Source: a candidate division FCPU426 bacterium (GTDB lineage: Bacteria; Oederibacteriota; Muellerivitia; Muellerivitales; Muellerivitaceae). Taken from it: 64,000 nt of DNA. The position numbers were made by a program, and so were the translations under genes. Every line of letters starts with the position of its first letter. Within the stretch, counting starts at the first letter, position 1. The DNA lies in contig CAVTWJ010000014.1 in NCBI GenBank assembly GCA_963738405.1, positions 128,001 to 192,000 on the forward strand, written 5' to 3'. Of the stretch, positions 17,052 through 64,000 are shown piece by piece. The notes under the pieces are model-generated. The model saw only the letters and a list, made by a program, of their open reading frames with translations, searched no databases and was not told the origin of the DNA.

Positions 17052-17279
17052 GATTTCGCGGCTCCAATTGTAAAATAGAGAACGCCCAAGCCCTTCATTG
17101 CAAGTTTCTTGCCCAAGAATCCGGCCCCGGCCCCTGGAGTTCACGGTGATTCGGACAGAATTTTTGTTTACGGAGCCAAAAAAGAATGGCCTCTTGCCAA
17201 AAGTCTCCATTTTTGTCGATCAGACCACAAGCGCCCTTTTGGGCTATATTCAAGGGGTTTACATAGGTAAAATGTTGCC

Positions 17280-33250: not shown

Positions 33251-33253
33251 CCC

Positions 33254-34051: not shown

Positions 34052-34071
34052 CCCTACCAAAGGAGAAAATA

Positions 34072-34755: not shown

Positions 34756-34768
34756 GGGAACCTTTCCC

Positions 34769-40674: not shown

Positions 40675-41262
40675 TTATTTAATGGAATCCAAAGCCAAAT
40701 TCAACATCACCACATTAACTCCAGGGTCGCCGATGAAGCCCAGCCAGCGTCCTTGGGTCTTTTGGGCCACCAGGTCCCGAACCTTTTGGGGGGCCAAGCC
40801 CCGGGCTTTGGCCACCCGGGCCACTTGGTAATCCGCCGCCGCGGGACTGATATGCGGGTCCAATCCCGAACCCGAGGCCGTCACTAGGTCCATCGGTACG
40901 GGAGCGTCCGCCATGTCCGGGTCGGCCTTGCGCAGGGCGTCCACCCGCCCCTTGACCGAATTGATGAAATCCGGATTGGTGGGTCCCAGGTTGGACCCGC
41001 TAGAACTGGCGGCGTTATAGCCAAAAGGTCCGGTAGCCGATGGCCTGCTCCAAAAATACTTAGGATCGTCGAAGGGCTGGCCGATCAGTTCCGAGCCCAC
41101 GGTCTTTCCGTTTACGACCATCAAGCTTCCCCCCGCCTGATGGGGAAACAGAGTTTGGCCGATCAGGGTCACCATTCCCGGATAAATAAACCCGCAGAAC
41201 ACCGTGAAAACCAGCAAGAACATGAATGAAAGTCTTAGTTGAGTTCCGAATTGCTTAAGCAT
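40675..41262 (-). CDS. kdpC: K+-transporting ATPase subunit C
   Basis: [34 protein letters not shown]. Confidence 0.97.
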
Positions 41263-41315
41263 ATAACCCTCCGAAATCTAGCCAGAAGCAAACTGCCTCT
41301 GGCTGATAAATGAAT

Positions 41316-45323: not shown

Positions 45324-45357
45324 TTTATTTTCTCCATTTTCAAAAAGTTAAATTCTC

Positions 45358-45447
45358 TTAGAACCATTCCGGTTTCATCATGGCTATCACCAAATAGACT
45401 AAAAGCCCCGCCGAAACGATTCCGCTCACGATGTAAACCGCGCTCAT
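45358..45447 (-). CDS. kdpF: K+-transporting ATPase subunit F
   Basis: 29 aa MSAVYIVSGIVSAGLLVYLVIAMMKPEWF with typical YL..A...PE.F end; GGAGG SD. Confidence 0.9.
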   Translation of the reverse strand: MSAVYIVSGIVSAGLLVYLVIAMMKPEWF

Positions 45448-45542
45448 GATTCGCCTCCCATCATTTTGTCCAGGGCGTAAATGAGCCAAATGGACGACCC
45501 CGACAAAGCGATAAAAATTCCAACACAATAAAGTTCGAGCAT
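45444..45542 (-). CDS. 32-aa hydrophobic peptide upstream of kdpF
   Basis: MLELYCVGIFIALSGSSIWLIYALDKMMGGES; AAGGAG SD; ATGA overlap with kdpF. Confidence 0.7.
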   Translation of the reverse strand: MLELYCVGIFIALSGSSIWLIYALDKMMGGES

Positions 45543-45912
45543 TTTTTTCTCCTTAACATTTCAGAAATGGCTTTTTAAACTTTCTCCCCTTGCGTGAAAA
45601 CCGTAAGGGTTTTCGCCTCCTTCCGCATCTCTCTTTTGCGGGTCCAATGGGCGAAATAACCCATGCCCAGCACCAAGGCCCCCCAAAGGAGTGGGCTCAT
45701 TAAAAACAAGACCCTTTCCACGGAACACCTCCACAATGAAAACAAGCCTCAACAACTCATCTGCTGTCGAAGAAACAATACGGCGAAAGGGGATATGGAT
45801 GCTGTTAAGAGGGATGAAGTAATAATTAGGGAAAAATAAATATGGCTGTTTTATGGAGCCTTTTCCTGTCCGCTTCCCCGCCAGAAGCGTAAAATCATCT
45901 TGAACATGAAAG

Positions 45913-48639: not shown

Positions 48640-48699
48640 AAGAAATTCAGAGGCCCGTATAGAACTGGGTTTATATTAGTTTCCTGAGGGAGGAGCCCC

Positions 48700-49395
48700 A
48701 TGGTTGATACCGGAACGATCCTATTAATAGAAGATGAATTGCCTATCCGCCGGTTCCTTAAGCCTACCTTGACCAGCCAGGGTTTTAAGGTGCTGGAAAG
48801 TGAAAAGGGAGAAGAGGGCCTGGCTTTAGCTAGTTCCCATAACCCCGACCTGGTACTTTTGGATTTAGGATTGCCCGATATGGACGGGTTGGAAGTCTTG
48901 AGGCGCCTGCGGGAATGGTCCACGGTGCCGGTCATTATCATCACCGCCCGGGGCAAGGAAAAGGACAAGATCGCCGGGCTCGATGCCGGCGCCGACGATT
49001 ACCTGACCAAACCCTTCGGCGTTGGGGAACTGATGGCCCGTTTAAGGGTGGCCTTGAGGCATTCTCAAAGGGTCAAGCAAGGCCGGGAAGAATCGGTTTT
49101 CGAGACCCCCGACTTCAAGGTGGACCTAGCCGCCCGGGTCGTGACCGTGCGGGGCAAAGAAGTGCACCTAACCCCCAACGAATACGACCTATTGGCGGTA
49201 TTAATAAGGTTCGCGGGAAAGGTGGTTACCCAAAAGCAGATTTTGAAGGAAGTTTGGGGGCCTGCCAGCGGGGACCAAATCCAGTACCTGCGCATCTACA
49301 TCTATCAACTGCGCCATAAGCTAGAAGCCGATCCCGACCGGCCGCAGTACATCCTGACCGAATCGGGTGTGGGTTACCGCCTTAAAGCGGAATAG
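48700..49395 (+). CDS. kdpE: response regulator
   Basis: LDLGLPD, GADDYLTKPF, HLTPNEY, YILTESGVGY. Confidence 0.96.
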   Translation: MVDTGTILLIEDELPIRRFLKPTLTSQGFKVLESEKGEEGLALASSHNPDLVLLDLGLPDMDGLEVLRRLREWSTVPVIIITARGKEKDKIAGLDAGADDYLTKPFGVGELMARLRVALRHSQRVKQGREESVFETPDFKVDLAARVVTVRGKEVHLTPNEYDLLAVLIRFAGKVVTQKQILKEVWGPASGDQIQYLRIYIYQLRHKLEADPDRPQYILTESGVGYRLKAE

Positions 49396-49680: not shown

Positions 49681-50950
49681 TTATTTCAGAATGAGCAATT
49701 TGCCAATTGTTTTGCCGGAGTTGGTGGTCACCACCACGTAATAAACCCCGTTGGCTAGGTAGTTCCATCCCCAGCCCGTCAAACTCACCGTTACCGCCGT
49801 CCCAGACGGAACGTTGTAGAAAGTCTCGTCTTTCACCTTGCGGAAATTCACCGTGAAGATTTCAACCCTCACATTCGAAATACCCAAGTAGGGCGGCGGG
49901 AGGACGTTGACCGTGGGTCCCGAGACCGGGTTGGGATAGATGCCTACTGTTCCCCTGACAACCGACGGCACGGGCGACACCGTGGGCGTATGGGAAGCCG
50001 TAGTGGTCGGGGTAAAGGTCCAAGTCGGAGTCCAGCTGGGTGTAGACGTGAAAGTGGATGTGTAGCTGGCTGTGGAGGTAAAGGTGTTCGTGGGCGTGAA
50101 AGTGCGGGTGGGGGTTGAAGTGGACGATGCCGTGGATGTGGCGGTGAAGGTCACGGTCGACGTATGGGTAGCGGTTGATGTCATTGAAGAGGTAGATGTA
50201 GCCGTGGGAGTGGATGTAAAGGGAGCCGTTGATGTGGAAGAAGCTGTGTTGGTAGAGGTGGCTGTGGAAGTGGCAGTCGAGGTGTGGGTCCAGGTAGCGG
50301 TAAATGAGGGTGTGGCGGTCGGAGTCCTGGTGGAAGTAGCTGTGGGAGTGCGAGTCGGAGTGGCCGTCCCGGTGGATGTCGGAGACAGGGTCACCGTCGG
50401 GCTATTCGTTACCGTATAGGTGAACACCGGTGTCAAAGTCGGGGTTCCCGTCGTGGTTGGACTAAGTGAGGGCGTGGAAGTTCCCGTGGAGGTTTCAGTC
50501 GGCGTGGGTGAAGGCGTGGCGGTACGGGTAAAAGTCGGAGTAGGGGTCGAGGTGTATGTGTTTGTAGGTGTGCTGGAGGGCACGGCCGTATGGGTGTCGG
50601 AAGGAGTCGCGGAAAGGGTCACGGTAGGACTGTTTGTAGCCGTGTAGGTGAATTGGGGTATCTGGGTGGGGGTGCTGGTAAAAACGCTCGTGGAAGTGGG
50701 TGTGGAAGTGCGAGTAGGGGTAGGCGTAAAGGAAGACGTGGGGCTATTGACGAGAGTTGGGGTGCCGGTTGAGGTATTTATCGGCGTGGAAGTCTTTGTG
50801 GCAGTCGAGGTGCCGGTATAACTCCAAGTAGCAGTAGTGGTGGCCGTGGAAGTACTGGTGGAGGTCCGGGTAGAAGTAGAGGTGGCGGTCGGTGTGGCCG
50901 TATTGACCACTGTATTGGTGGTAGTACTAGTCGGTGTGGAACTTCTTGTC
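49681..50950. repeat. stalk + CTD cassette duplicated at about 52311..53540
   Basis: Long near-identical nucleotide blocks, with indels, between the 3' ends of the CE4-like and GH30 genes. Confidence 0.85.
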
Positions 50951-52191
50951 GGGGTCGGCGTCGTAGTGGGCGCAAGGGTTGGGGTCTTCGTAACGGTCGA
51001 GGTAAAGGTATTGGAGGGCGTAGAAGTCTTCGTCGGAGTGGCAGTGGAAGCCGATGTTGCGGTGGGTGTAGGCGTGACCACGGTACAGGTCGTCACCACC
51101 GCGTTATCACGGACAAAGAGGTAATCGCGAACTTCACCGGCGGGAGCGAACCACATGCTCTTGTTGCCCGGCGTCCCGAAATTATTGTTCAGGTAGGTAA
51201 AAAGATCTTGGAGGGTCGCCTGGTTCGTGCTGTAGGTGTCGGCGGCGGCTCCGCTGCCCTGCGAAACGCTGTGGGTGTATTCGATAAGCCAGGTGGAACG
51301 GGTTTGACCCGCCGCGGAGGCAGCCAATGATTTCCAGGCCGTGTCATCGGTTCCGAACATCCCGCCCCTCTGGAACTGGAAAGGCAGGGGAGTCGTATCT
51401 ATATAATTGTAGGAACCTCCCCCGCACTCCGCGGAGAGGAGATAGGAAGGCGGATATCCGGCACAAGTGTTCGCCGAGGAATTCTCGTAGGGAAACACCA
51501 TTTGGGTGACGTTGTAGCCAGGAAAATACTTCAGCAAAAGCGGTTCGTTATTACTCAACTCGGGCCCGATGTCGGTAGCGGTACCGTTGCAGGTCAAGGG
51601 ATTGGGGTGGTCATAGGAATGATCCAACATGTCCCATCCCGCCGCCCTCATGGCCTGCAGGCAGGTCCAGTTCATAAAATAACTTCCGCTCCCGGACGCC
51701 CCACCCCCATTGGCCCAGGAACCCACCACCGCTTCCCCCGCCCTCCAGCCCATGGCATCCAAAAGGGGTTTGCCGTAATCGTATTGGGATAATCGATTGT
51801 CGTCGAATGTGAGGGAATAGGCCCAATGGTAATTGTTGTAAAGGGTCGCCTTCGTGACCGCGCCTGTACCGCCTGCCGTCCAATTCTGGGCGGTTACCAC
51901 AATGGAACTGCCGGTGGTGGTGAAGGTGGCTGTTCCGGCGGAGGAACTATAGGTGGCTGAAACCGCCGCTCCATCGGCCGTGACGGCTACGGAGGCGCAG
52001 GTTCCCACATTTACGATAAGCGTTATTTTTTTGTAATTAATAAGAGAAGGGACTTTTGAGTAATCGACATTCACGCAGTAGTTCTTGTCCGCGGCCATGG
52101 CCATCGAGGCCGCTCCAGCGAAAAAGGCGAGGAAGGAAAGCAAAGTAAATCGCAATAAAGGGTGTTTAGGATTTATGCGGGAGGGTTCCAT
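49681..52191 (-). CDS. secreted polysaccharide deacetylase (CE4-like) + Thr-rich stalk + T9SS-like CTD
   Basis: Signal peptide; SLTFDD, GWDMLDHSYDHP; about 370-aa T/P/S region; GIYPNP..LANGVYY..KLLILK. Confidence 0.8.
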   Translation of the reverse strand: MEPSRINPKHPLLRFTLLSFLAFFAGAASMAMAADKNYCVNVDYSKVPSLINYKKITLIVNVGTCASVAVTADGAAVSATYSSSAGTATFTTTGSSIVVTAQNWTAGGTGAVTKATLYNNYHWAYSLTFDDNRLSQYDYGKPLLDAMGWRAGEAVVGSWANGGGASGSGSYFMNWTCLQAMRAAGWDMLDHSYDHPNPLTCNGTATDIGPELSNNEPLLLKYFPGYNVTQMVFPYENSSANTCAGYPPSYLLSAECGGGSYNYIDTTPLPFQFQRGGMFGTDDTAWKSLAASAAGQTRSTWLIEYTHSVSQGSGAAADTYSTNQATLQDLFTYLNNNFGTPGNKSMWFAPAGEVRDYLFVRDNAVVTTCTVVTPTPTATSASTATPTKTSTPSNTFTSTVTKTPTLAPTTTPTPTRSSTPTSTTTNTVVNTATPTATSTSTRTSTSTSTATTTATWSYTGTSTATKTSTPINTSTGTPTLVNSPTSSFTPTPTRTSTPTSTSVFTSTPTQIPQFTYTATNSPTVTLSATPSDTHTAVPSSTPTNTYTSTPTPTFTRTATPSPTPTETSTGTSTPSLSPTTTGTPTLTPVFTYTVTNSPTVTLSPTSTGTATPTRTPTATSTRTPTATPSFTATWTHTSTATSTATSTNTASSTSTAPFTSTPTATSTSSMTSTATHTSTVTFTATSTASSTSTPTRTFTPTNTFTSTASYTSTFTSTPSWTPTWTFTPTTTASHTPTVSPVPSVVRGTVGIYPNPVSGPTVNVLPPPYLGISNVRVEIFTVNFRKVKDETFYNVPSGTAVTVSLTGWGWNYLANGVYYVVVTTNSGKTIGKLLILK

Positions 52192-52310
52192 CGTCGTTTC
52201 CTAATTCCTTTTGCCCTTGTGAGGCACCCAGACTGTCCAGTTGGACAGCCCCAATTAGGTTGTTCATAAGGCCATCCCGGCCGTCAAGCCGGGATAAACA
52301 GGCCCGCCTT

Positions 52311-55300
52311 TTATCTGAGGATCAGCAATTTGCCAATTGTTTTGCCGGAGTTGGTGGTCACCATCACGTAATAAACCCCGTTCGCCAGGGTGTTCCATCC
52401 CCAGCCCGTCAAACTCACCGTCACCGCCGTCCCAGACGGAACGTTGTAGAAAGTCTCGTCCTTCACCTTGCGGAAATTCACCGTGAAGATTTCCACTCTT
52501 ACGTTGGAAAGGCCCAGGTAGGGCGGAGGCAAGATATTGACCGTGGGTCCCGATACCGGGTTAGGATAGATGCCTACTGTTCCCCTAACAACCGACGGCA
52601 CGGGCGACACCGTGGGTGTTTGGGAAGGGGTCGTCGTCGGGGTAAAGGTCCAAGTCGCTGTCCGGCTCGGGGTGAACGTAAAGGTGGGGGTGAAGCTGGG
52701 CGTTTCGGTAAAGGTATTAGTGGGCGTGAAAGTGCGGGTTGGGGTTGAAGTGGACGATGCCGTGGATGTGGCGGTGGAGGTCACGGTGGGCGTGTGAGTG
52801 GCGGTTGACGTCATGGAATAGGTGGGTGTAGCCGTGGGAGTACGAGTCGGAGTGGGCGTCCCGGTGGATGTCGGGGACAGGGTCACCGTAGGGCTATTCG
52901 TTACCGTATAGGTGAAAACCGGTGTCAAAGTCGGGGTTCCCGTCGTGGTTGGACTAAGTGAGGGCGTAGAAGTTCCTGTGGAGGTTTCAGTCGGCGTGGG
53001 TGAAGGCGTGGCGGTACGGGTAAAAGTCGGGGTGGAGGTTGGGGTTGAGGTGGAAGTGAGGGTATTGGAAGGCACCGCCGTATGGGTGTCGGTAGGAGTC
53101 GCGGAAAGGGTCACGGTGGGGCTGTTCGTAGCCGTGTAGGTGAACTGGGGCGTCTGGGTGGGAGTGCTGGTAAAGACGCTTGTAGAAGTGGGCGTAGAAG
53201 TGCGGGTGGAAGTAGGCGTACCGGTAGAAGTAGTCGTCCAGCTATTCGTCGGGGTAGAGGTTTGAGTCCTGGTATTGGTCGAAGTCCATGTGGAAGTTGG
53301 GGTAGGCGTAAAGGAGGACGTGGGGCTATTAACGGGAGTTGAGGTACTAGTGGGGGTGTTCATCGGGGTGGAAGTCTTTGTGGCAGTCGAGGTTCCGGTG
53401 GAACTCCATGTAGAAGTAGCGGTGGCCGTGGAAGTACTGGTGAAGGTCCGAGTTGAGGTTGAGGTGGCGGTAGGTGTTGCCGTATTGATCACCGTATTGG
53501 TGGAGGTACTAGTCGGTGTGGAACTCCTTGTCGGAGTCGGGGTTCCGGTAAAAGTGGCAGTAGGCGTGGGAGTTCCAGTGGAAGTTCGGGTCGGAGTCAA
53601 ACTAGGAGTGCTGGTTGGCGTGGATGTGGTTGTCGATGTAGAGGTGCGAGTCGGGGTAGGGGTCATCGTAGGCGTCCCGCCAGGACAATAGGCTCCCAAA
53701 ACCTCAACATTGTCGAGTTGAAGATTGTAGGTCCCCCCCGCAACGCTAGCCCATTGAAACACGGTAACTTGACTGGCTGAGAAAGTCTCAGGGGTTCCGA
53801 ACCCCCGCTGGGTGAGCTGGCTGAACAGGACTGTCACCGGCGTCCATGCTGCGGACGCGGTAAAACTCACGCCGAAATTATCCCCATCGGTCACCGCAGG
53901 TATCGCCATCTGGAACCAATAGGTCCCGCTTCCCTTGGCATAAAACACGATTCCGCCGGTATAGGGGCTCAAGTCCACTGTCCCGCCCAAGGGACAGGTA
54001 ATGCCCCCATAGTTACTGACCGAGCCCGAAGCGCTCAAGCTGTGAGCAGTTGATCCCGGCGCGCCGCCGGTTGGAATGGTAATGTTGATGGTCGTGTTCG
54101 CGTCGCCGTAGGTGACCCAGCTTCCTCCCCAGTTGTTAGCGGTGTTTCCGTCCTCAAAATCATCGATCATGCAAAAAGCGCCGGGGATGGGGGTTGGCGT
54201 GCGGGTAGGGGTAGATGTCGGAGGCAGGGTATTCGTGATCGTGGCTGTGGGCCCCACGGACCCAATGATCCCCACGAAAGTCGTGATGCTCTGGGCGGTC
54301 AAGGTGTAGGTGAAGCTGTTCCCCGTAACAGGGATAGCCGTTTGGCGGGTCAGGTTATTACTGGGGTCCGTCACCCACGGGGTCACGGAACTTACGGTGA
54401 TACCGTTGAAGGTGATGGGCTGGGACACGGTCAAGGTGTTGACGTTCATGGCGACGACAACAACCGTGGTCGGAGCTGAGGGATCGTTCTTGAAGGCCGA
54501 GACTGAGACACCCGCCGAGGGCACCTCGGTGGCGCCGATACGGTAATAGCCGGGCCGGACGAACCGGCTCCAGTTTCCCATGCACCAAAGCTTCTTGGTG
54601 GAGGCGTTGTCCGAACCGATAAGGGATTCGTTAGTGCTCCCGCTGGCGGGGTACAGCCACCAAGCGTGATAGGCGTTCATGCTGGCATCCACGATGCATT
54701 GGTGGAGCCATCCCGCCACCTGTAGCCCCGATTTCATCGTGGTGTCGTTGGCGGCCCCGCTCACATCCGACATCTCGGTCTCCCAGCTTTCCTGGTTGGT
54801 TAGGTGCGTAAACCCCGCCCCCGAAAGGCTATAGGGGGTCGCTCCGTTCAACCCATAGAGGTGGTTTCCGATGACGCCGACCATGGGGGCATTCGTGGCG
54901 TCGTCCATGGCAGTAGCCGCCAAAGCTTTGTTGTCGGCAAAACTCTCCGGAATCATGATTTTGGTGGTAAGCGATGCGCCTTTGAGGGCGGTATTCAGCG
55001 CTCCGACGAAAACATCAAACTGGCCCGCGGACCATTCATTGCTCTCGTAGGTGGGGTTCCAATCCGGCTCGTTCTGAGGTGAGACCGCCAGGATGCTTAC
55101 CCCGGTGCTTGAAATTTGTGTGTTGGCGTACTTGATGTAGTTCACCAAGTAACTGGCATAATCGGTGTCATTGCCGTTGGGGGCCCCGCTGGCCGCGCCC
55201 AGAAAGTCGTTGTTGGAACTGCCCCAGGTGGACCCAGAGACACGGTCATTAGCGGGCGGCGCCCATTCGGTGCACCAGACCTGTGTGACGCCCAAGCCGA

Positions 55301-55607
55301 TGGCCTGCTTCATGACCGCGGTTTCCCCCGGATCCGAGATACTCGTGGTGGTGTTGGTATAGGGAATGTGGCAGCGGAGCATAGACAACCCTATTCCGTT
55401 GGGGTTGTTGCCGGTCATACCGGTGGAATCCCAATACCAGGTCGCCAATTGGGTGGAATAGGCGCTCTCGTGCCAGGCACTGCAGGCACCGAAGCCCCTT
55501 ATGTATTGGTCAGTAGTGGTGGCGTCAATGGTGGCCGTTCCGGCCCAAAGGGAAAAGGCAGACGAAAAAAACAGAAAAAAAGTTAATAACGTTTCATTTC
55601 TTTTCAT
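52311..55607 (-). CDS. secreted GH30 xylanase-like + CBM11/CIA30-like module + Thr-rich stalk + T9SS-like CTD
   Basis: IRGFG, SPQNEPD, WETE, AYHAWW, SRFVRPGY; IDDFEDG module; GIYPNP CTD; start reassigned to MKRNE. Confidence 0.88.
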   Translation of the reverse strand: MKRNETLLTFFLFFSSAFSLWAGTATIDATTTDQYIRGFGACSAWHESAYSTQLATWYWDSTGMTGNNPNGIGLSMLRCHIPYTNTTTSISDPGETAVMKQAIGLGVTQVWCTEWAPPANDRVSGSTWGSSNNDFLGAASGAPNGNDTDYASYLVNYIKYANTQISSTGVSILAVSPQNEPDWNPTYESNEWSAGQFDVFVGALNTALKGASLTTKIMIPESFADNKALAATAMDDATNAPMVGVIGNHLYGLNGATPYSLSGAGFTHLTNQESWETEMSDVSGAANDTTMKSGLQVAGWLHQCIVDASMNAYHAWWLYPASGSTNESLIGSDNASTKKLWCMGNWSRFVRPGYYRIGATEVPSAGVSVSAFKNDPSAPTTVVVVAMNVNTLTVSQPITFNGITVSSVTPWVTDPSNNLTRQTAIPVTGNSFTYTLTAQSITTFVGIIGSVGPTATITNTLPPTSTPTRTPTPIPGAFCMIDDFEDGNTANNWGGSWVTYGDANTTINITIPTGGAPGSTAHSLSASGSVSNYGGITCPLGGTVDLSPYTGGIVFYAKGSGTYWFQMAIPAVTDGDNFGVSFTASAAWTPVTVLFSQLTQRGFGTPETFSASQVTVFQWASVAGGTYNLQLDNVEVLGAYCPGGTPTMTPTPTRTSTSTTTSTPTSTPSLTPTRTSTGTPTPTATFTGTPTPTRSSTPTSTSTNTVINTATPTATSTSTRTFTSTSTATATSTWSSTGTSTATKTSTPMNTPTSTSTPVNSPTSSFTPTPTSTWTSTNTRTQTSTPTNSWTTTSTGTPTSTRTSTPTSTSVFTSTPTQTPQFTYTATNSPTVTLSATPTDTHTAVPSNTLTSTSTPTSTPTFTRTATPSPTPTETSTGTSTPSLSPTTTGTPTLTPVFTYTVTNSPTVTLSPTSTGTPTPTRTPTATPTYSMTSTATHTPTVTSTATSTASSTSTPTRTFTPTNTFTETPSFTPTFTFTPSRTATWTFTPTTTPSQTPTVSPVPSVVRGTVGIYPNPVSGPTVNILPPPYLGLSNVRVEIFTVNFRKVKDETFYNVPSGTAVTVSLTGWGWNTLANGVYYVMVTTNSGKTIGKLLILR

Positions 55608-55681
55608 TACTTTATCTTCCCCTGAAGAACCGGAGGCATCCGGGCCTTTTTCCAAAGCTTTTCATGCGTGCCAAGGATTTC

Positions 55682-55713
55682 AAAACGATTTTACGATGGG
55701 TGAAAACGCTTCA
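55682..55713. promoter_or_regulatory. two candidate LacI-type operators upstream of GH30
   Basis: AAAACGATTTT and TGAAAACGCTTCA carry the AANCGNTT core. Confidence 0.4.
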
Positions 55714-55970
55714 AATCATCACCTTCGCTTCAGTGGAAAGATACCGCCGGAAGGGGGGAGGCACAACAGCGGAGACAAATCAATAGGCTCAAAAAAATCA
55801 AACTTATAGACTTTTATTTCAAACAACACAATTTACCGAATTTTCTAAGTTTCTCGGTCAAACCTGCTTCACCTCCGTGAGATTGCCTCACCCCAACCAG
55901 GAAGCCCAATTCGCCAGCGGGACGTTTGCACCTCACAGAGGTTGAAACCAGGAACAACGTTTTCTTTGTT

Positions 55971-56335
55971 CTACTTCAAGATCAGCAGTTTACAAGTCGT
56001 CGTGGTGGACTGGCCCTGGGATTTCACCGTGCAGGTCACGATGTATAGCCCGTTGGCCAGGTAGTTCCCCACGTAGTTTTTCTCGTTCCAATAGACCGTG
56101 TGGTTGCCCGTGGAGTCGAACGAGGCTCCCGACACCGTGGTCGACCAGATCAACCGGCCATCGATGGTATAGGCCTTGAGGGTGATATCGGAGTTCGGGT
56201 CAATTCCCTCTTCGCCCGAGGAACCCACCGTCTTGGCGCTGGCATTGGAGCTTCCCGATCCGGTACCGGACAAATTAACCGCCAGGTTTACCCCGTTCCC
56301 CGTGGAGGGGTTCGGGTAGGCGATCACGCTGGCCG
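55971..56335. repeat. type-B CTD cassette duplicated at 63637..64000
   Basis: Near-identical DNA and protein (IAYPNPSTGNGVNLAV..TTTTCKLLILK). Confidence 0.9.
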
Positions 56336-59300
56336 CCTTCAAGGCCGCAGACGATCCAGACGGCTCCTGGCCCCAAACTAAGGACCCGCCCTCATAGGCC
56401 GTGACATGGGTCCAAGGCGTGTAGCTGGTATAGGCCGCGTAGCTCCAGTCGTTGTCCTGGAGCATGTTGCTCCAGTCGCTCTTGTTGAAGCGGCTCTGGA
56501 TCTGGATAGCCTGCCCAGGCTGAAGTACCAGATTCCCGGTGAACTTGTAGCTGATGTAGTTGGTCTGGCCGCCCAGGCTGGTGGCTACGGTCGTATGCAA
56601 CACATCACTCGTCACCGAAGTCCCGGCAGGCATCAACCCCGCCCAATCCACCCAGCTTTGGACGCTCTGGTTGGTGCAGTCGCAGTTGAACCAGTAGCGA
56701 ACTTCAACATTATTCAGATTCAAAGCCCCGGACCCTGTGTTGACCACCTCAATGAAGGGGTGAGGGCTGTTGGTCGAATCGGTCGTGATCGACGACAACA
56801 GTTCCACGGTCAAGGCCGCCGCCCCGGAGGGAGTAGGCGTGAAGGTGAAGGTCGCCGTCGGAGGAACCGGCGTATTGGTAAAGGTGAATGTCGCCGTCGG
56901 CGGCACAGGTGTGTTGGTGTGGGTAAAGGTGAAGGTGGCCGTTGGGGGCACCGGCGTGTTGGTGTGCGTAAAGGTGAAGGTAAAGGTGGCCGTTGGCGGA
57001 ACCGACGTGAAGGTCGAAGTGGGTGGAATCGCCGTATTCGTCCTCGTCGCCGTCGGTGGAACCGCTGTGTTGGTGGCCGTCCCAGTAAACGTATAGGTAT
57101 TGGTTGGGGTTTGGGAGACCGTTGGACTAGGCGGAGCCGGAGTGTTGGTAGCGGTTGGAGGCAGCGGCGTGTTCGTGACCGTGGGGGGCACGGGACTATT
57201 CGTACTCGTGGCCGTGGGCGGAACAGGTGTGCTGGTGCTGGTAGATGTCGGAGGAGCCGCCGTGTTCGTAGCCGTGGGTGGTGCCGGAGTATTGGTAGCG
57301 GTCGCCGTAGGCGGAACGGCCGTATTGGTGGATGTGGGTGGCACCGAGGTGAAGGTCGAGGTCGCCGGGATTGCCGTATTCGTCGACGTCGGCGGCACGG
57401 CCGTGCTAGTCCTTGTGGCCGTGGGCGGAACAGCGGTCAAGGTCGCCGTCGGGGTGAAGGTAAAAGTGGAGGTTGGCGGTACGGGACTGTTGGTATTAGT
57501 CGCAGTCGGAGGAATAGCCGTATTCGTCCTCGTCACCGTGGGCGTAAAGGTAAAGCTCGCCGTCGAGGTACGCGTGGCCGTGGACGTTGCCGTCGGTGTC
57601 CCCGTGGCTGTCCAAGTCTTCGTGGGAGTGTTCGTAAAGGTCGGCGTGGCGGGTTGGGGGATGACCTGGATGGCTTCCACCATGGCGCTGGTATCGGTGC
57701 TGGTGGTTCCCGTGAAGGTGATGGTAATGACTCCGCCGGTGGGCGACACGTTATTGATCACCTTGTCGTCCTGGGTGTTGGCGCCCACCTGGGCGTAAAC
57801 GTCCAGGTTGGAAACAGCGGTCGAGCCGTTGACGGCCACGTTGAAAACCCTGTCCCCTGCGGCGAAGTCGCCCGAATAGGTCTCGGCGAATTTCAGGGTG
57901 ACCTGGTAGCTCCCGGCGGGCACGTTGAAGGAATAGCTGAAGCTGTTCCCGTAGCGCTGGGTGTCGTAAAGGGTGGAATCGGAGGTGCCGGTCACGGCCG
58001 CTCCCTCAGCCACGGTGGTTCCGCCGCTGAAGTTTTCATCCGCGGCCCAAACGTTGCTCGTGGTGTCCGTATAAGCCGGACCGCCGGCGTTGACCCGCCA
58101 GCTGGAGGACACAATCGGAGTCGGTGTCGAGGTGACGGTGGGGGTGTGGGTAAAGGTGGCCGTGGGCGGGACGGGGGTGTTGGTGGCCGTGGGGGCCGAC
58201 GGCGTGTTCGTCTTCGTCGGGGTGCTGGTCGACCCATTGGACTGGGTGAAACTGTACGACTCAAAATTAAAGAGTGTCCCGGATCCTCCGGTGAACACGA
58301 AATAAACATCATGCAGGCCGGTCGCGCCCGTGATCGCACAGGTGGCATTTTGCCAGGTCTGGGTTCCTCCCGTGTTGGGCACCGGGCATGTGCCGATAAG
58401 CGTGCCGGTCGTGCTGTCAAGGCGGATCTGGATCGAGCCCCCGCTGACGGTTCCCGCGACGCGGGCGCTGAAGGAGGAAGCGCCGGTCCCAAAACTCATG
58501 TTCCGAACCTGGGTCCAGGAGCCGTTAATAGTACCCGTAATATTCATCCCGCCTTCGGAGCAAACCCCAGTTTGGAGCCCCGATTCTTTGGCCATCATCA
58601 CGGCCCGAAGTGTGGAAAAGGGGTTTTGATTCTTCAAGGCCGCAACACCCGCGGTGGTTGGGGTCACGACCGCCAGGGTACCGTCCGAGTTCACGAAAAG
58701 ACGGTCCAGGTTCACGCTGCGCTGATAGACAGCGTTCCCACTGCAGGTCAGTCCGTTCAGAAGAGCCAGCTCTCGGTTGTGATAGGCGATGTAATAGTTG
58801 CTGCCGATATTGACGATCCCGGCATGGTTATTATTACCGCAGTTATTGGGAGGATTAAATAAAGCCGTCCCGCGATGGGTGAACCCGCTCATAGGGCTGC
58901 TACTGGTCATGTAATCGATGCTGGCCGCGGGCGAGGCCGAAAAATCCGTCGAGTAGGAAAAATAGTAGGTTCCGTTGATCTTGTTCATGAAGGGCGCCTC
59001 GAAATAACGAGGGGCGTCGATTGAGACCGCGGAACCGCTCACGCTGATCATGTCAGAGTTCAATTTGATGACCCGGGCATTTCCTGGGCCCCCACCCCCG
59101 AAATAAAGATAGGCCTGGCCGTCATCGTCGATGAAGGCGGCCGGATCGAAAACATAAGTGATATTGGTGCCCGGAGTGCTGTTGCTGACCAGCGAATGGC
59201 CCAAGGGATCGGTAAAAGGTCCGGTCGGGCTAGTGCTGCGGGCGACGCCAATGCTGCCGCCCCCGTTCCCGTAGTAAAGGTAATAGAACCCGTTGCGGAA

Positions 59301-59624
59301 GATTGTATCCGGGGCATAGGTCAGGCCGGCCCAGGAGGTGTTACTGGCGCTGAACGGTATCCCTTCGTCGGTCCAATTCACCAGATCGTCAGAGGACATG
59401 AGGTAGACATTTGTGATTGAATAACCCGTTTGGCCGGTGATGTCGTGGGAACAATAGATGTACATCCGGCTGCTGGCGGTGTCCCAAAAGGCGGTGGGGT
59501 CAGCGGTGTATTGCTGGTAAATGAGCGGGTTTGCGGAGGCGGGCGAGTTGAATAAAGCGAAACACAACAGGGTCAAAATTGGAAATCCAAAATATCGTTT
59601 CAAGCTGAACTGTTGCCCTTGCAT
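55971..59624 (-). CDS. secreted GH43 + CBM6 + malectin + Thr/Pro stalk + CBM3 + T9SS-like CTD
   Basis: TADP, YAPD, FDPAAFIDDDG, YFEAP, NNH (GH43); FSARVA..GLHDVYFVF (CBM6); VNAGG..LKFAE..RVFNV (malectin); EVRYWF..DWSN..NDWS (CBM3); AYPNP CTD. Confidence 0.9.
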   Translation of the reverse strand: MQGQQFSLKRYFGFPILTLLCFALFNSPASANPLIYQQYTADPTAFWDTASSRMYIYCSHDITGQTGYSITNVYLMSSDDLVNWTDEGIPFSASNTSWAGLTYAPDTIFRNGFYYLYYGNGGGSIGVARSTSPTGPFTDPLGHSLVSNSTPGTNITYVFDPAAFIDDDGQAYLYFGGGGPGNARVIKLNSDMISVSGSAVSIDAPRYFEAPFMNKINGTYYFSYSTDFSASPAASIDYMTSSSPMSGFTHRGTALFNPPNNCGNNNHAGIVNIGSNYYIAYHNRELALLNGLTCSGNAVYQRSVNLDRLFVNSDGTLAVVTPTTAGVAALKNQNPFSTLRAVMMAKESGLQTGVCSEGGMNITGTINGSWTQVRNMSFGTGASSFSARVAGTVSGGSIQIRLDSTTGTLIGTCPVPNTGGTQTWQNATCAITGATGLHDVYFVFTGGSGTLFNFESYSFTQSNGSTSTPTKTNTPSAPTATNTPVPPTATFTHTPTVTSTPTPIVSSSWRVNAGGPAYTDTTSNVWAADENFSGGTTVAEGAAVTGTSDSTLYDTQRYGNSFSYSFNVPAGSYQVTLKFAETYSGDFAAGDRVFNVAVNGSTAVSNLDVYAQVGANTQDDKVINNVSPTGGVITITFTGTTSTDTSAMVEAIQVIPQPATPTFTNTPTKTWTATGTPTATSTATRTSTASFTFTPTVTRTNTAIPPTATNTNSPVPPTSTFTFTPTATLTAVPPTATRTSTAVPPTSTNTAIPATSTFTSVPPTSTNTAVPPTATATNTPAPPTATNTAAPPTSTSTSTPVPPTATSTNSPVPPTVTNTPLPPTATNTPAPPSPTVSQTPTNTYTFTGTATNTAVPPTATRTNTAIPPTSTFTSVPPTATFTFTFTHTNTPVPPTATFTFTHTNTPVPPTATFTFTNTPVPPTATFTFTPTPSGAAALTVELLSSITTDSTNSPHPFIEVVNTGSGALNLNNVEVRYWFNCDCTNQSVQSWVDWAGLMPAGTSVTSDVLHTTVATSLGGQTNYISYKFTGNLVLQPGQAIQIQSRFNKSDWSNMLQDNDWSYAAYTSYTPWTHVTAYEGGSLVWGQEPSGSSAALKAASVIAYPNPSTGNGVNLAVNLSGTGSGSSNASAKTVGSSGEEGIDPNSDITLKAYTIDGRLIWSTTVSGASFDSTGNHTVYWNEKNYVGNYLANGLYIVTCTVKSQGQSTTTTCKLLILK

Positions 59625-59674
59625 GGGTCCCCCCGAAATCAAATGTTGGGAATGCCCTCAGGCGCATTCCCAGG

Positions 59675-59688
59675 CGAAACCGCTTCCA
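59675..59688. promoter_or_regulatory. candidate LacI-type operator upstream of GH43
   Basis: CGAAACCGCTTCCA matches GnAAnCGnTTnCA, about 50 bp upstream of the start. Confidence 0.45.
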
Positions 59689-59777
59689 CCTTCAAGTGGA
59701 CCGGTTCACTAGATTTGTGTTTGGAGAAGTGGGTTTTATTCCAAAGGAGGAAAAAGGAGGGGAAAGACTTGTGTCGA

Positions 59778-62700
59778 TTACCTTAGGACCAGCAATTTCC
59801 CTATCGTTTTTCCGCCGTTCGTCGTCACCACCACATAGTAAAGCCCGTTGGCCATCGGCCCTCCCCAACGGCTCACCAACGGGAGATGAAGGGCCGTTCC
59901 TGAAGGCACCGAATCCTCTGTCCAATCGACAACCTTGCGGAAATTGACCGTGAAAACCTCAATTCGAACCTTTGACAGGCCCGGATAGCTCGGCGGGAGG
60001 ATGTTGACGGTTCCGCCCGGAACGGGGTTGGGATAGAGGCCCACATGACCCGCTAGCGGCGTGGAAACCGGGGTTACCGTCAAGGCAGGGCTCGGCGTGG
60101 AGGTGGGGGTGGCCGAAGGGCTAGGGGTAGCGGTAAAGACGGGGGTGCTGGTGGCCGAGGGCGAAAAGGTTGGCGTCGAGGTTCGGGTCAAGGTGATGGT
60201 AAAGCTCGCGGTAGCGGAAGGGGTCGGAGTTGAAGTCGAAGCGGCGGTATTGACCGGTGTCAGGGTGGCGGTGGGCGTCACCGTCCAGGTTGGGGTTGGA
60301 GTCGGGGTCCCCGACGCGGTTTGCGTCAAGGTGGAAGTAGATGTCAGCGTATGGGTAGGGCTGAATTGCGCGGTTAAGGTCGGTGTTTCCGTAAGGGTCG
60401 GAGTCGTCGTCATCGTGAAGGTCGATGTCCTAGTGGCGGTATGGGTGGAAGTCGGGGTGGTCGTAACGGTGGAAGTGGAGGTAAGGGTCGCGGTCAAGGT
60501 TTGGGTGGCAGTGAAAGATGAGGAGGATGTGGGTGTAGAAGTGAAAGAATGGGTGGGGGTAGGGGACAGGGTGTTGGTGGGACTGAATTGCGGCGTGAGG
60601 GTTATCGTTCCCGTGGGGGTGGGCGTGCTGGTGGTCGTATTGGTTGCTGTACGGGTGGCAGTCGCCGGGAGCGTGGCGGTTGATGTAAAAGTTCCCGTGG
60701 AGGTCGAGGACGCCGTCGGGGTAAGGGTCTTAGTCGTGGTGGTCGTCGCGGTAGAGGTTTGAGTCAGGGTGGCCGTGGGTGAGGAAGTCGCAGTCACGGT
60801 CCGGGTACTGGTTAAAGTATTGGCGGTGGTGAAGGTGGAGGAGGCCGTGAGGGTTTGGGTTGGGGTAGAGGTAAGGGTGCTTGTCTTTGTCACCGTGGGG
60901 GTAGAGGTTTGAGTCGCCGTCAATGTGCTGGTGGGGGTGTTGGTGCGGGTGACTGTTGATGTGGAAGTCGAGGTACTCGCCGGAGTGGGTGTGGAAGTCG
61001 GGCTCGGCGTCGGGGTGCGGGTGGGAGTACCCGAAGGCGTCGGAGAACTGGTGCCAGTTGAAGTAATGGTATTGCTGGGTGTGGAAGTTTTGGTCAGGGT
61101 GGCTGAGGGGGTAGGGCTGGGTGTGTTCGTGCGGGTCGCGGTGGGCGTGCTGGTCGGGGTGCCCGCCGGGATATCCCCGTAAAGGATTCCCCTGGCCCCG
61201 GGGGCTATATAACAACGGCCATAGATACTTTCATCCCCCTCGATCCAACCTGGGATGAACGGCTTGCTGGCGTTGCTGATCGAGGTCCAGGTTACGCCCG
61301 CGCCGTCGTCGCACCGGAAAATACCTTGGGTTCCATTAACGGTTCCTGACAGGAAGACCGCCGGGTGGGTCTGGCCGGAGGCGGCCTTGCCGAACCCCAC
61401 CGGACCCTTGGGCTCGTACACGTTCGCGAGGGCCGTCACGCTGGAACCCCCGTTGGTGAATCGGAAGAGGGCGTTGTAGGTGGAGACCCAGAATTCCCCG
61501 GGCTCCCCGAAGACGGAACGGGGCATGACCCACTGCCCGTTGCCGTTGGCGTCGCCCCAATTGACCGCGATGGTGTTCACCTGGGTGAAGCTGGCCCCGG
61601 AGTTGGTGCTCTCGTAGATCGTCACCGAATTGCCGTAAACCCATTCGCTGGGATAGGTGGCGTAGAAGGTGGTTGCGTTCGAACGGTCCGAGGCCACCAT
61701 GGCGCCGCTGGGAAGACCCGAGCAGGCCGTCCAACTCCCGCCGAGGGAGGAAGCATAGGCCGGGGAGCCGTAGCCGCTATAGGGAGAAACCACCACCCGG
61801 GACCCGTCGGCGGCCACCGCCACCGATCCCATCTGGCCCGTTGTGGTATAGCCCGGAGGGGCGCTGCCCCAGGGCGTCCAGGTTTGCCCGTTGTTGGTAG
61901 AATAGGCCACGTCGCTGTTCACGGCTGAGGGGTTGGTGCTATTCCCCGCCCGGACCACCGTATTGGGTTTGGATTCGGCGAAGTCCAGCATGTTGGTGTT
62001 CGTGTATTGGGGATTGCAGTACATCCCTAAGGCGGGCGACTGGGTCACGTTCGTGTGGCGCATGCCCCCCACGTCGCCCATGCAGGAAAAGAGGATGCCT
62101 CCCGTCGCCGCGGGAGGCATGTAAATAGGAACCGTCTCCTCCAGGTTGTTGTCGGTGTAGGTCCAGGAAACGGGGCTCGCCTGGATATTGGCGCTGCTCC
62201 AAACCCCGCCCCCTTCCCCGGAGGGATAATAGGCGTTGTTGGAATTGAACGGATCGATGGCCACGAACCCCGCCCAACCCGCCCCGCCCGGGGCACCGCT
62301 GCATCCATTTTGGTAAATGGCGCTGTTGTTGTTGAAGACCGAGGAACCGGAGCCGGCCTCGGCGATAACCGACCAGGAACCCCCGCCGTTGGCGGTCGAA
62401 AGGACCCTATCGGGACCGCCCCACCAATCGATGGTCGAGACCAGGATATGGCTGGCGTTCTCGTGATCCACGCAGATACCGGCGTAACCGCCGGCGCCGC
62501 TCCCGGGGCCAATGGAAGGGGTTTCGTTGGTCCAGCCCAGGGTTCCGGTATTGAGCTTCCAGACCTGGCCCGTCGAGACGCTGTTGGGGCCGTAGCCGCC
62601 GCTGTCGTAGACGATCCAAAGGTTGCTGTCCGTCCCCAGGCTGGCGTGGGGCGTGACCATGTTGGAAGGCCCGCCGGAAATAAGGGTCCAGCTTCCTCCG

Positions 62701-63410
62701 GAGTTGGTGGAACGGTAGATATTGCTGTTGCCGGAGGACATGGAGAGGACGCCCACATAGATCGTGGCGGAAGCCGAGCCCGAGGTACCGTGGGGGTCGA
62801 AGATCACCCAGGAAAGGCCGTAGCCGGTATCGCCCAGAACCGGGAAGGAACCGACCTGAGTCCAGGAAGCGGCCGAATTGGCGCTCACCCAAAGCCCCTG
62901 CCAACGGGAGGCGAAATAAAGCTTGGAGGTCAGGTTGGGGTCCACCGCCAATCGTTCCCCCGCTTCCCTTCCGTCATTGTTGCCCGCGATGGAGACCGGA
63001 ATGGCATTGGCGGTCCAGGAGTTGCCTTGGTCGGTGGAGCTGAGGATGGTGCCGGCACCCGAGAAGCCCGCGGCGGCGTAGACCACGTTGGCGTTGACGG
63101 GATCGGGCGCGATGCTCTCCCCCCCGAAGTTGTTGCCCCCTCCATACATGTCGGTCAAGGGCACCCATTGGCTTGTGGAATTATTCCAGCGGTAGAAACC
63201 GCCGACATCGGTGCGCGCGTAAAGGAGATTCTGTTGGACAGGGCTGTAGACTAAGCCCGGGACAAAGCCGCCGCCCATAATCGCCACACTCTGCCAGGTA
63301 TAGGCTTGGGCGTAGGACCTTCCAGCACAACCTAAAACAAGACACAGCACCGCCAAAAAGACCGGCCTGCTTAGCACAAATAATTTGATTGGGTTATTCG
63401 AATAGGACAT
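59778..63410 (-). CDS. secreted GH74 xyloglucanase-like + Thr-rich stalk + T9SS-like CTD
   Basis: GGGFVPG, YARTDVGG, GERLAVDP, LEET, GDVGG, BNR repeats S.N.G.SW; GLYPNP..KLLVLR; start reassigned to MSYSN. Confidence 0.92.
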   Translation of the reverse strand: MSYSNNPIKLFVLSRPVFLAVLCLVLGCAGRSYAQAYTWQSVAIMGGGFVPGLVYSPVQQNLLYARTDVGGFYRWNNSTSQWVPLTDMYGGGNNFGGESIAPDPVNANVVYAAAGFSGAGTILSSTDQGNSWTANAIPVSIAGNNDGREAGERLAVDPNLTSKLYFASRWQGLWVSANSAASWTQVGSFPVLGDTGYGLSWVIFDPHGTSGSASATIYVGVLSMSSGNSNIYRSTNSGGSWTLISGGPSNMVTPHASLGTDSNLWIVYDSGGYGPNSVSTGQVWKLNTGTLGWTNETPSIGPGSGAGGYAGICVDHENASHILVSTIDWWGGPDRVLSTANGGGSWSVIAEAGSGSSVFNNNSAIYQNGCSGAPGGAGWAGFVAIDPFNSNNAYYPSGEGGGVWSSANIQASPVSWTYTDNNLEETVPIYMPPAATGGILFSCMGDVGGMRHTNVTQSPALGMYCNPQYTNTNMLDFAESKPNTVVRAGNSTNPSAVNSDVAYSTNNGQTWTPWGSAPPGYTTTGQMGSVAVAADGSRVVVSPYSGYGSPAYASSLGGSWTACSGLPSGAMVASDRSNATTFYATYPSEWVYGNSVTIYESTNSGASFTQVNTIAVNWGDANGNGQWVMPRSVFGEPGEFWVSTYNALFRFTNGGSSVTALANVYEPKGPVGFGKAASGQTHPAVFLSGTVNGTQGIFRCDDGAGVTWTSISNASKPFIPGWIEGDESIYGRCYIAPGARGILYGDIPAGTPTSTPTATRTNTPSPTPSATLTKTSTPSNTITSTGTSSPTPSGTPTRTPTPSPTSTPTPASTSTSTSTVTRTNTPTSTLTATQTSTPTVTKTSTLTSTPTQTLTASSTFTTANTLTSTRTVTATSSPTATLTQTSTATTTTTKTLTPTASSTSTGTFTSTATLPATATRTATNTTTSTPTPTGTITLTPQFSPTNTLSPTPTHSFTSTPTSSSSFTATQTLTATLTSTSTVTTTPTSTHTATRTSTFTMTTTPTLTETPTLTAQFSPTHTLTSTSTLTQTASGTPTPTPTWTVTPTATLTPVNTAASTSTPTPSATASFTITLTRTSTPTFSPSATSTPVFTATPSPSATPTSTPSPALTVTPVSTPLAGHVGLYPNPVPGGTVNILPPSYPGLSKVRIEVFTVNFRKVVDWTEDSVPSGTALHLPLVSRWGGPMANGLYYVVVTTNGGKTIGKLLVLR

Positions 63411-63636
63411 GGTTACTGAAGCTCCCGTTCCATTGTACCTCGATCGCCGCTGGGAGCTATTTGACTTTACCGCCAAACTGACCGTAAAAATATCAGACCA
63501 AAAAAAATAAGCTCGAAAACTTTAAACTTAGAGTGTTAGAAGAAAAAAACCACGCCCTCAACCCAAGATCCACGGAGGGAAGGGGAAGGAAGCCCATTCA
63601 TTCCCCTGCCCGTCCGCAGTTGCCTTGGTACGGCTT

Positions 63637-64000
63637 CTATTTCAAGATCAGCAGTTTACAAGTTGTCGTGGTGGTCTGGCCCTGCGATTTCACCGTGCAG
63701 GTCACGATATATAACCCGTTTGCCAGGTAATTCCCCACGTAGTTTTTCTCGTTCCAATAGACCGAATGGTTGCCGGTGGACCCGATGGAGGCTCCTGAAA
63801 CCATGGTCGACCAGATCAACCGGCCATCGATGGTATAGGCCTTGAGGGTGATCTCGGCGTTCGGGTCGATTCCCTCATCTCCCGAGGAACCCACCGTCTT
63901 GGCGCTGGCATTGGAGCTTCCCGAGCCGGTACCGGATAGATTCACCGCCAGGTTCACCCCGTTCCCTGTGGAGGGGTTCGGGTAGGCGATCACGCTCGCC
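63637..64000 (-). CDS. 3' end (type-B CTD) of another secreted array protein, truncated by the window edge
   Basis: ORF open to the window end, near-identical to the GH43 protein C-terminus. Confidence 0.85.
   Translation of the reverse strand, partial: ASVIAYPNPSTGNGVNLAVNLSGTGSGSSNASAKTVGSSGDEGIDPNAEITLKAYTIDGRLIWSTMVSGASIGSTGNHSVYWNEKNYVGNYLANGLYIVTCTVKSQGQTTTTTCKLLILK

Follow-up and report, generated by a model that had tools for sequence, protein, structure and literature searches.

Introduction

Carbohydrate-active enzymes (CAZymes) that carry type IX secretion system (T9SS) sorting domains, in place of polysaccharide utilization loci (PULs) or cellulosomes, have already been published (PMC5831590, PMC6851124). 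PUL-free, T9SS-linked, multi-modular CAZymes were described for 'Candidatus Paraporphyromonas polyenzymogenes', of a rumen Bacteroidota family (PMC5831590), and T9SS-secreted, surface-anchored cellulases for Cytophaga hutchinsonii (PMC12860637, PMC11611037). Here, we analyse an array of tailed plant-polysaccharide enzymes at positions 49681-64000 of a 64,000-nucleotide stretch of DNA (the window) from an uncultured soil bacterium of candidate division FCPU426 (phylum Oederibacteriota). Like the two systems above, this locus combines clustered multi-domain enzymes and type-A-like C-terminal domains (CTDs; tails) with neither PULs nor a cellulosome. Unlike these two systems, which belong to Bacteroidota and are described with a full T9SS, it lies in a genome in which GldK, GldL, GldM, GldN and PorU were not found. 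It also differs from them in its stalks of 350-410 aa, its two tail cassettes and an embedded module of extracytoplasmic function (ECF) sigma factor, anti-sigma and PorV-TPR proteins.

The cellulases of Fibrobacter succinogenes S85 carry a basic terminal domain (BTD/Fpm-1) that has been re-read as a TIGR04183 T9SS signal (PMC6851124). That host also lies outside the Bacteroidota, its CAZymes also end in TIGR04183-type domains, and attachment to the cell surface has been proposed for them. Long Thr-rich stalks, CBM3-linked tail variants and PorV-TPR/ECF modules occur at the present locus, and no report of them was seen for F. succinogenes. Covalent attachment as in Porphyromonas gingivalis is assumed there; no sortase was found in the present genome.

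Cognate pairs of CTD and shuttle are known from Flavobacterium johnsoniae, in which type-B CTDs go with PorP/SprF-like proteins (PMC12618676, PMC9143113). As in these pairs, a cargo gene here adjoins the gene of what may be its own outer-membrane carrier, the partner that sets the final location. Unlike in these pairs, the tails here are type-A-like, the barrels belong to the PorV/PorQ family, and neither TIGR04131 nor PorP/SprF was found.

In cellulosomal clostridia, carbohydrate-binding sensor domains control CAZyme genes via the RsgI/SigI anti-sigma/sigma pairs. In P. gingivalis, the PorA-PorV-PorXY-SigP system channels signals from PorV and a tailed protein of the cell surface to an ECF sigma factor (PMC7712824). 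The present candidate sensor differs from both: it would signal through a PA14 and CBM9 protein, a barrel-TPR fusion and a single-pass anti-sigma protein with a FlgD-Ig domain. The T9SS was placed in Bacteroidetes only by TXSScan (PMC4793230) and in the Fibrobacteres-Chlorobi-Bacteroidetes (FCB) superphylum by later papers (PMC12421860). In a limited literature collection, a search returned nothing on a motor-less T9SS outside Bacteroidota or on Thr-rich stalks with T9SS tails.

Results

An island of tailed enzymes on a single strand

The locus is likely to be a T9SS-type island of tailed CAZymes with two exchangeable tail cassettes, and its host is an uncultured diderm that is not a canonical member of the Bacteroidota. 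Five genes fill positions 49681-64000; they are co-oriented, as an earlier note made from the sequence alone had stated, and lie on the minus strand. The layout given in that note stands for the five tailed genes in this interval and fails at its upper limit, since the array runs on past 64000. The complete island spans ~39 kb on a single strand of contig C14 (C14:177681-216615) in a genome of 3.18 Mb (23 contigs, 90.66% complete), and the window covers its first third. It encodes ten tailed proteins, of which nine are secreted plant-cell-wall enzymes and one is a PA14-CBM9 protein. Past the window end, the same strand bears genes for a PorV/PorQ-family barrel fused to TPR, the PA14-CBM9 protein, an anti-sigma-like protein with FlgD-Ig, an ECF sigma factor and an AraC regulator. 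Four more enzymes follow, each tailed and with a stalk of 264-411 residues: a GH30, a GH74 (the second of the island), a fusion of GH28 and GH53, and a lyase composed of PL4 and CBM3. The enzymes of the window and its C14 continuation thus have xylan, xyloglucan, galactan and pectin as their targets.

The earlier note had proposed the order signal peptide, catalytic module(s), stalk and CTD, and this plan is confirmed by Pfam and PDB matches, composition and tail alignment. Sec-type hydrophobic N-termini, judged by eye, are present in the window translations. The first gene (49681-52191; this and all features below are on the minus strand unless stated) encodes a CE4-like deacetylase of 836 aa, which comprises a signal peptide, an N-domain, a Polysacc_deac_1 domain (residues 126-243; 29.3 bits, cut-off 23.1), a stalk and a short tail. 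A PDB sequence search with the CE4 head and a Pfam search with its N-domain returned no match. The second gene (52311-55655; 1114 aa from a TTG codon) has an alternative ATG start at residue 17, ahead of a hydrophobic segment. Its GH30 head matches PF14587 (34.8 bits) and the XynC-like (glucuronoxylanase) model NF052681 (184 bits), and it is accompanied by a CBM11 module (35.4 bits) that the earlier note had overlooked, a stalk and a short tail. The third gene (55971-59642; 1223 aa) encodes GH43, CBM6 and malectin domains recognised by Pfam, then a Pro/Thr linker, a CBM3 module (56592-56786; PF00942, 41 bits) and, directly after it, a long tail. The fourth gene (59778-63476; 1232 aa from TTG) encodes a xyloglucanase-type GH74 head with a stalk and a short tail; a later ATG at residue 23 is the more likely start. 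In Pfam, this head gives weak Sortilin/BNR matches only; in the PDB, 17 solved GH74 chains match it over the full length (best 6p2m, E 2.4e-129, 714/720 residues). The fifth gene encodes a GH30/59-malectin-CBM3 protein and is clipped by the window end, so that its window part (63637-64000) corresponds to the long sorting domain. The full gene extends to C14:194903 (C14:191637-194903) and encodes 1088 aa.

Two tail forms with one fold

The five C-termini of the window align as one family in which P-N-P, N-G-x-Y and K-x-L-x-L are invariant. The short form comprises ~89 aa in the CE4 protein (49684-49950) and is also found in the GH30 protein (52314-52580; PF18962 30.1 bits, cut-off 27) and the GH74 protein (59781-60050; TIGR04183 26.8 bits, cut-off 23; AlphaFold2 (AF2) model). 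The long form comprises ~120 aa in the GH43 protein (55974-56339) and ends the clipped gene as well, in agreement with the earlier assignment of forms to proteins. Short and long forms are 25-36% identical. Two insertions distinguish the long form, a Gly/Ser-rich stretch of 19 residues after the first strand and four residues before the last strand.

The AF2 model of the short form exhibits seven strands (pLDDT 87.6). Its best fold matches in the PDB are the CTDs of PorU (E 2.8e-4), RgpB and mirolase (TMq 0.71), the substrate CTDs of NucA/RemA bound in the SprA translocon (8glk, 8gl8, 8gl6), and PorZ. The best fold match of the long-form model is likewise the PorU CTD, and the long form scores 20.6 bits against the model of the PorU C-terminus. 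The view of the tails as T9SS-type sorting domains thus finds support in hidden Markov model (HMM) matches (TIGR04183 for GH74, PF18962 for GH30) and in fold comparison. The earlier note had gone further and proposed two classes of sorting signal. Two conserved forms do exist, but each is a subfamily within the type-A fold, and they do not correspond to the established A and B classes. A type-B identity of the long tail was rejected because TIGR04131 had no match (0/7 genomes); the PorP/SprF model TIGR03519 gave nothing over its cut-off (best 35.5 vs 90.55). As type-A variants, the two forms go with the tail architecture, one with and one without CBM3.

With a model built from the window tails, 35 tailed open reading frames (ORFs) were detected in the genome (29 short and six long). 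The domain ends no more than three residues from the C-terminus in all 35, and 27 of them contain at least 100 Thr/Pro/Ser-rich residues. TIGR04183 matches the genome 30 times, and type-A tails occur in 31/31 genomes of the phylum, with 8-68 per genome. Beyond the 35, many further Thr-rich ORFs have more divergent tail-like ends. Giant ORFs of 3255-4852 aa (C2:162292-174192, C10:63010-77565, C19:10347-20111 and others of this genome, G000) contain several hundred Thr/Pro/Ser-rich residues, and some of them end in divergent tail-like sequence that the window-derived model missed. The true number of tailed proteins therefore exceeds 35.

Thr-rich stalks and exchangeable cassettes

The stalks, defined by composition, connect the tail to the folded module that precedes it. 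They comprise residues 377-736 of the CE4 protein (49984-51063; 42% Thr, 12% Pro, 17% Ser), residues 665-1014 of the GH30 protein (52614-53663) and residues 779-1133 of the GH74 protein (60078-61142). Their lengths are 360, 350 and 355 aa, respectively; the three contain 42-44% Thr, 12-14% Pro and 16-17% Ser, and all four Thr codons are in use. The GH43 protein has Thr/Pro/Ser-rich stretches of 256 and 31 aa that are richer in Pro. The larger stretch is the Pro/Thr linker (residues 674-929; 56856-57623), identified by composition and a repeat search. It consists partly of tandem repeats of 27-93 nt, and these are the only detectable tandem repeats, the CE4, GH30 and GH74 stalks being low-complexity and non-periodic. 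An Arg/Gly-rich ORF of 818 aa on the plus strand (56406-58862) runs antisense to the low-complexity GH43 linker and is almost certainly its shadow, not a gene.

Neighbouring genes with unrelated heads have tail DNA that is 86-88% identical over up to 1.1 kb. The stalk and tail of CE4 and GH30 are ~88% identical in three blocks of 531, 411 and 249 nt, the tail halves of the GH43 and GH30-malectin-CBM3 genes are 87% identical over 1113 nt, and the second GH30 and second GH74 genes of the island have 1122 nt of tail DNA in common. Both tail forms were also searched against 5.8 billion proteins, a search that detects only proteins of similar length having exact words in common with the query; the long query comprised residues 1100-1223, with CBM3 excluded. 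The long tail retrieved 34 proteins, five of them from this genome, and CBM3 is listed on all 34; the short tail retrieved 20 proteins, with CBM3 listed on none. The heads of the 34 include GH43, GH30/59, GH62, PL4, GH39, GH5 and others. A PL4 head that is followed by CBM3 and the long tail here bears a short-type tail in a genome of the same genus, G033 (head 88% identical, 684 aa). The CBM3 link and the occurrence of the same head with either tail indicate that the classes mark two tail architectures, not two enzyme sets. The tail classes are real and conserved.

Two cassettes would account for this pattern. One leads from a long Thr-rich stalk into the short tail, and the other from a Pro/Thr linker through CBM3 into the long tail; both appear to have been duplicated and swapped among unrelated heads.

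An SprA homologue and expanded PorV-family barrels

The genome encodes one SprA homologue (TIGR04189 238.1 bits, cut-off 200), which also matches F. johnsoniae SprA (6h3i, E 1e-20), and SprA is present in 58/61 genomes of the phylum. The PorV/PorQ-family model NF033709 matches ~18 ORFs of the genome, 11 of them over its cut-off; the PorV equivalog NF033710 reaches 63.7 at best against a cut-off of 250. PorV-TPR-like barrels were detected at E 1e-20 in 39/41 phylum genomes, with up to 12 per genome. A standard Bacteroidota with a canonical T9SS would have refuted the reading of the earlier note, and this genome is not one; it holds SprA and the PorV family, with GldK/L/M/N and PorU not found. 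The same note had seen neither SusC/SusD nor cohesin or dockerin in the sequence. SusD (PF07980) indeed has no match in any of the 11 genomes of the family, with the Bacteroides thetaiotaomicron control over the cut-off (SusC was not searched), and Dockerin_1 has no match in this genome, with controls matched (cohesin was not searched).

The sprA gene (L017:5216-11122, on C20) is followed by a gene for a protein of 1599 aa (L017:11124-15923) with an Fn3-like stretch and a weakly tail-like C-terminus. The block lptFG-lytS-lytTR-sprA-1599-aa gene is kept in 5/5 related loci at 39-65% identity, and the 1599-aa protein may be a fixed translocon partner. Its identification as a PorU/PorZ analogue is unsupported, as it has only the Fn3-like stretch and the weak tail match.

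A module of ECF sigma factor, tailed PA14-CBM9 protein and PorV-TPR barrel

Just past the window end, HMM matches and gene order define a four-gene module (C14:195082-199168; L015:3082-7168) of ECF sigma factor, anti-sigma-like protein with FlgD-Ig, PA14-CBM9 tailed protein and PorV-TPR barrel. The barrel belongs to the PorV/PorQ family (NF033709 107.9 bits, cut-off 90), and the PA14-CBM9 protein ends in a type-A tail (TIGR04183 30.5 bits). The anti-sigma-like protein, which is single-pass and comprises 225 aa, was identified by gene order and topology. A second copy of the module on contig C11 (L026:2839-7053) precedes three malectin-CBM3 enzymes with long tails. The module recurs in G021, a genome of another genus, and as two tandem modules in G033, followed in each by stalked, tailed enzymes. 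A long-tail enzyme gene lies directly after the PorV-TPR gene in the island, the C11 copy, G021 and the second G033 module. Eleven loci with a PorV-family barrel gene, drawn from five of the phylum's families, were compared (L028-L038); in nine of them the gene directly upstream ends in a tail like that of the PA14-CBM9 protein, so that pairs of cargo and barrel genes are a conserved theme.

The PorV-TPR barrel and the PA14-CBM9 tail were modelled as a complex, which scored 0.82, compared with 0.00 for the best of three controls. Of 157 solved complexes, 116 attain this mark, as do two of 215 mismatched pairs, counts that are rough given the custom alignments. Between runs, 96% or more of the contacts agree, and the partner has a pLDDT of 87 or above. 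PorV-CTD complexes have already been solved, and the pass may thus reflect likeness to them, not binding by this particular pair.

The conservation of the two forms, their strict CBM3 link, the expansion of PorV-family barrels and the position of long-tail enzyme genes directly after PorV-TPR genes at four loci would all suit a scheme in which each tail form has PorV-family carriers of its own and is delivered to a separate destination; that the two types might route cargo differently had been raised in the earlier note. Such cognate CTD-shuttle pairs are known for the type-B CTDs of F. johnsoniae (PMC12618676). Among close relatives, however, the same PL4 head is found with one form or the other, which shows that form and enzyme are not coupled, and the difference in form could simply accompany the CBM3 cassette. 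We therefore regard separate destinations as rather doubtful and retain two exchangeable architectures as the preferred description.

A putative regulatory sequence connects the module with some of the enzyme genes. The promoter-like motif GGAATAAAAC-N8-CCAAACAC lies upstream of the GH43 gene (59717-59742). The 10-mer GGAATAAA(A/C)C, a candidate promoter element of the GGAATAAAC-type, was found within 160 nt upstream in five of 16 regions, namely those of the GH43 gene (where it lies at 59733-59742) and the GH30-malectin gene, of both ECF genes, and of the first enzyme on C11. It matches the genome 61 times against ~12 expected; the strict two-box version has three matches against 0.8 expected, which is suggestive only. 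In G021 (2/8 regions) and G033 (4/10), comparable motifs are present ahead of ECF and enzyme genes. A scan of the array for sigma-70 promoters and terminators gave fewer sites than in shuffled sequences. The module probably activates the island, at least in part.

Export route and fate of the enzymes

The enzymes follow a common order of Sec signal peptide, head with or without carbohydrate-binding modules, long Thr/Pro/Ser-rich spacer and seven-stranded type-A beta-sandwich. From homology, the tail would take the protein across the outer membrane via an SprA-type translocon, with PorV-family barrels as carriers that hold or carry the tails. Export via SprA, guided by the tail, is the most likely route suggested by the sequences.

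Several results weigh against this interpretation, beginning with the tails themselves. The CE4 tail falls just below both cut-offs (PF18962 26.5 vs 27, TIGR04183 20.6 vs 23) and was assigned with the aid of the alignment; the long form falls below all of them (PF18962 17.6 and 17.1, TIGR04183 17.9, FlgD_ig 18.0 bits), and its seven-stranded AF2 model is of low confidence (mean pLDDT 65.3), with a disordered insert. Long stalks are also confined: in a sample from other genomes, only two of 16 tailed proteins contained 100 or more Thr/Pro/Ser-rich residues within the 300 aa that precede the tail. The idea of a phylum-wide trait was rejected on this count, and long stalks are a trait of the family, not of the phylum. 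Within the window, the CE4, GH30 and GH74 genes lack the 10-mer in their upstream regions. On the side of the machinery, GldM/PorM had no match in this genome or in 41 phylum genomes, GldL/PorL none in this genome or in 31 phylum genomes, and GldN and peptidase C25 (PF01364) none in this genome, all in searches that lacked a positive control. GldK had no match in this genome and weak FGE-type matches in 12/31 phylum genomes, none over the cut-off. The PorU model (NF033707) matches only tail regions in this genome (model positions 990-1095). Because the motor, ring, PorU and C25 were not found, the source of energy and any covalent attachment are unexplained.

The tail scores bear on a different reading, in which the C-terminal domains are ordinary Ig-like/FlgD-like adhesion modules and export takes another route, such as the type II secretion system. 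Several tails do lie below the family cut-offs, and the long form scores equally on FlgD_ig and Por_Secre_tail. The invariable position of the domain at the extreme C-terminus (35/35), best fold matches that are T9SS CTDs, the co-occurrence of SprA and PorV-family genes throughout the phylum and the tailed genes directly upstream of PorV-family barrel genes (9/11 loci) make adhesion modules very improbable, and tail-guided export remains the preferred reading.

The missing components could instead be parts of a canonical T9SS, with a motor, ring and sortase that have diverged too far for models built on Bacteroidota or that lie in unassembled DNA. The GldL, GldM, GldN and C25 models matched no control genome, and these components are therefore reported as not found, not as absent; the genome itself is not fully complete at the figure given above. 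Yet models from the same sources do detect SprA, the PorV family and type-A tails in the phylum, and many of the genomes that yielded no GldM (0/41) or GldL (0/31) are at least 96% complete. The GldK model, moreover, picked up distant FGE-fold proteins in three control genomes and none in this genome. A hidden canonical system is thus an improbable explanation.

Whether the enzymes remain on the cell depends on what becomes of the tail. Some cargo of the T9SS is released and some is anchored (PMC10202324), which leaves room for free release, with the tail serving export only and the stalk acting as a glycosylated spacer for solubility or protease resistance. The failure to find a PorU-type sortase or C25 peptidase in this genome agrees with release, and enzymes with CBM3 could reach their substrate without attachment to the cell. 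In the CE4, GH30 and GH74 proteins, however, a stalk of 350-360 aa joins the head to the tail alone, an arrangement that is sensible mainly if the tail end is fixed at the surface and whose gain is hard to see if it is not. The ~18 PorV/PorQ-family barrels could hold tails non-covalently. Free release accordingly seems unlikely, and tethered surface display is favoured over it by a modest degree.

Other genes of the window

The remainder of the window encodes Kdp, trehalose synthesis, transporters and other unrelated functions. A trehalose cluster (31670-36769; OtsA-like GT20, trehalose phosphatase and TreT-like synthase), interleaved with a mechanosensitive-channel-like gene and DUF5752, lies close to kdpABC and kdpDE (40675-49395) and resembles an osmotic-stress neighbourhood. 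A divergent pair at 13791-19046 encodes a 1139-aa transglutaminase-like and DUF2126 amidoligase protein on one side and a 588-aa GATase-4 and transglutaminase-like protein on the other.

Discussion

The use of T9SS-tagged CAZymes is a recognised third strategy of biomass degradation beside PULs and cellulosomes, and it has been studied only with a full T9SS. Three features are distinct at the present locus: SprA and ~18 PorV/PorQ barrels occur without detected GldK/L/M/N or PorU, the stalks are unusually long, and the module is conserved in two related genomes. The island is of interest chiefly for its reduced machinery, for the tail class that is coupled to CBM3 and for the candidate sensor at the surface.

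The PA14-CBM9 and PorV-TPR pair may act as the surface sensor and the ECF/anti-sigma pair as the control. Put together with the display of the enzymes, this would yield a motor-less and sortase-less SprA/PorV system in which PorV barrels serve as cognate tail holders, PA14-CBM9 on PorV-TPR senses polysaccharide and signals via the FlgD-Ig anti-sigma protein and the ECF sigma factor, and the island enzymes are thereby induced on tethers of ~350 residues. In its entirety this scheme is speculative, and we would not expect all of its parts to hold. Its sensory part is directly testable: the tailed lectin and the PorV-TPR barrel may couple the sensing of surface substrate to an ECF sigma factor.

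The exchangeable tail cassettes, of which one is always accompanied by CBM3 among the proteins retrieved, represent a natural tool-kit for enzyme display. The island suggests that the tagged-enzyme strategy is used by a soil lineage apparently equipped with the outer-membrane core only, that is, SprA and many PorV-family barrels. Such a lineage bears on how the SprA/PorV core can function without the PorLM motor.

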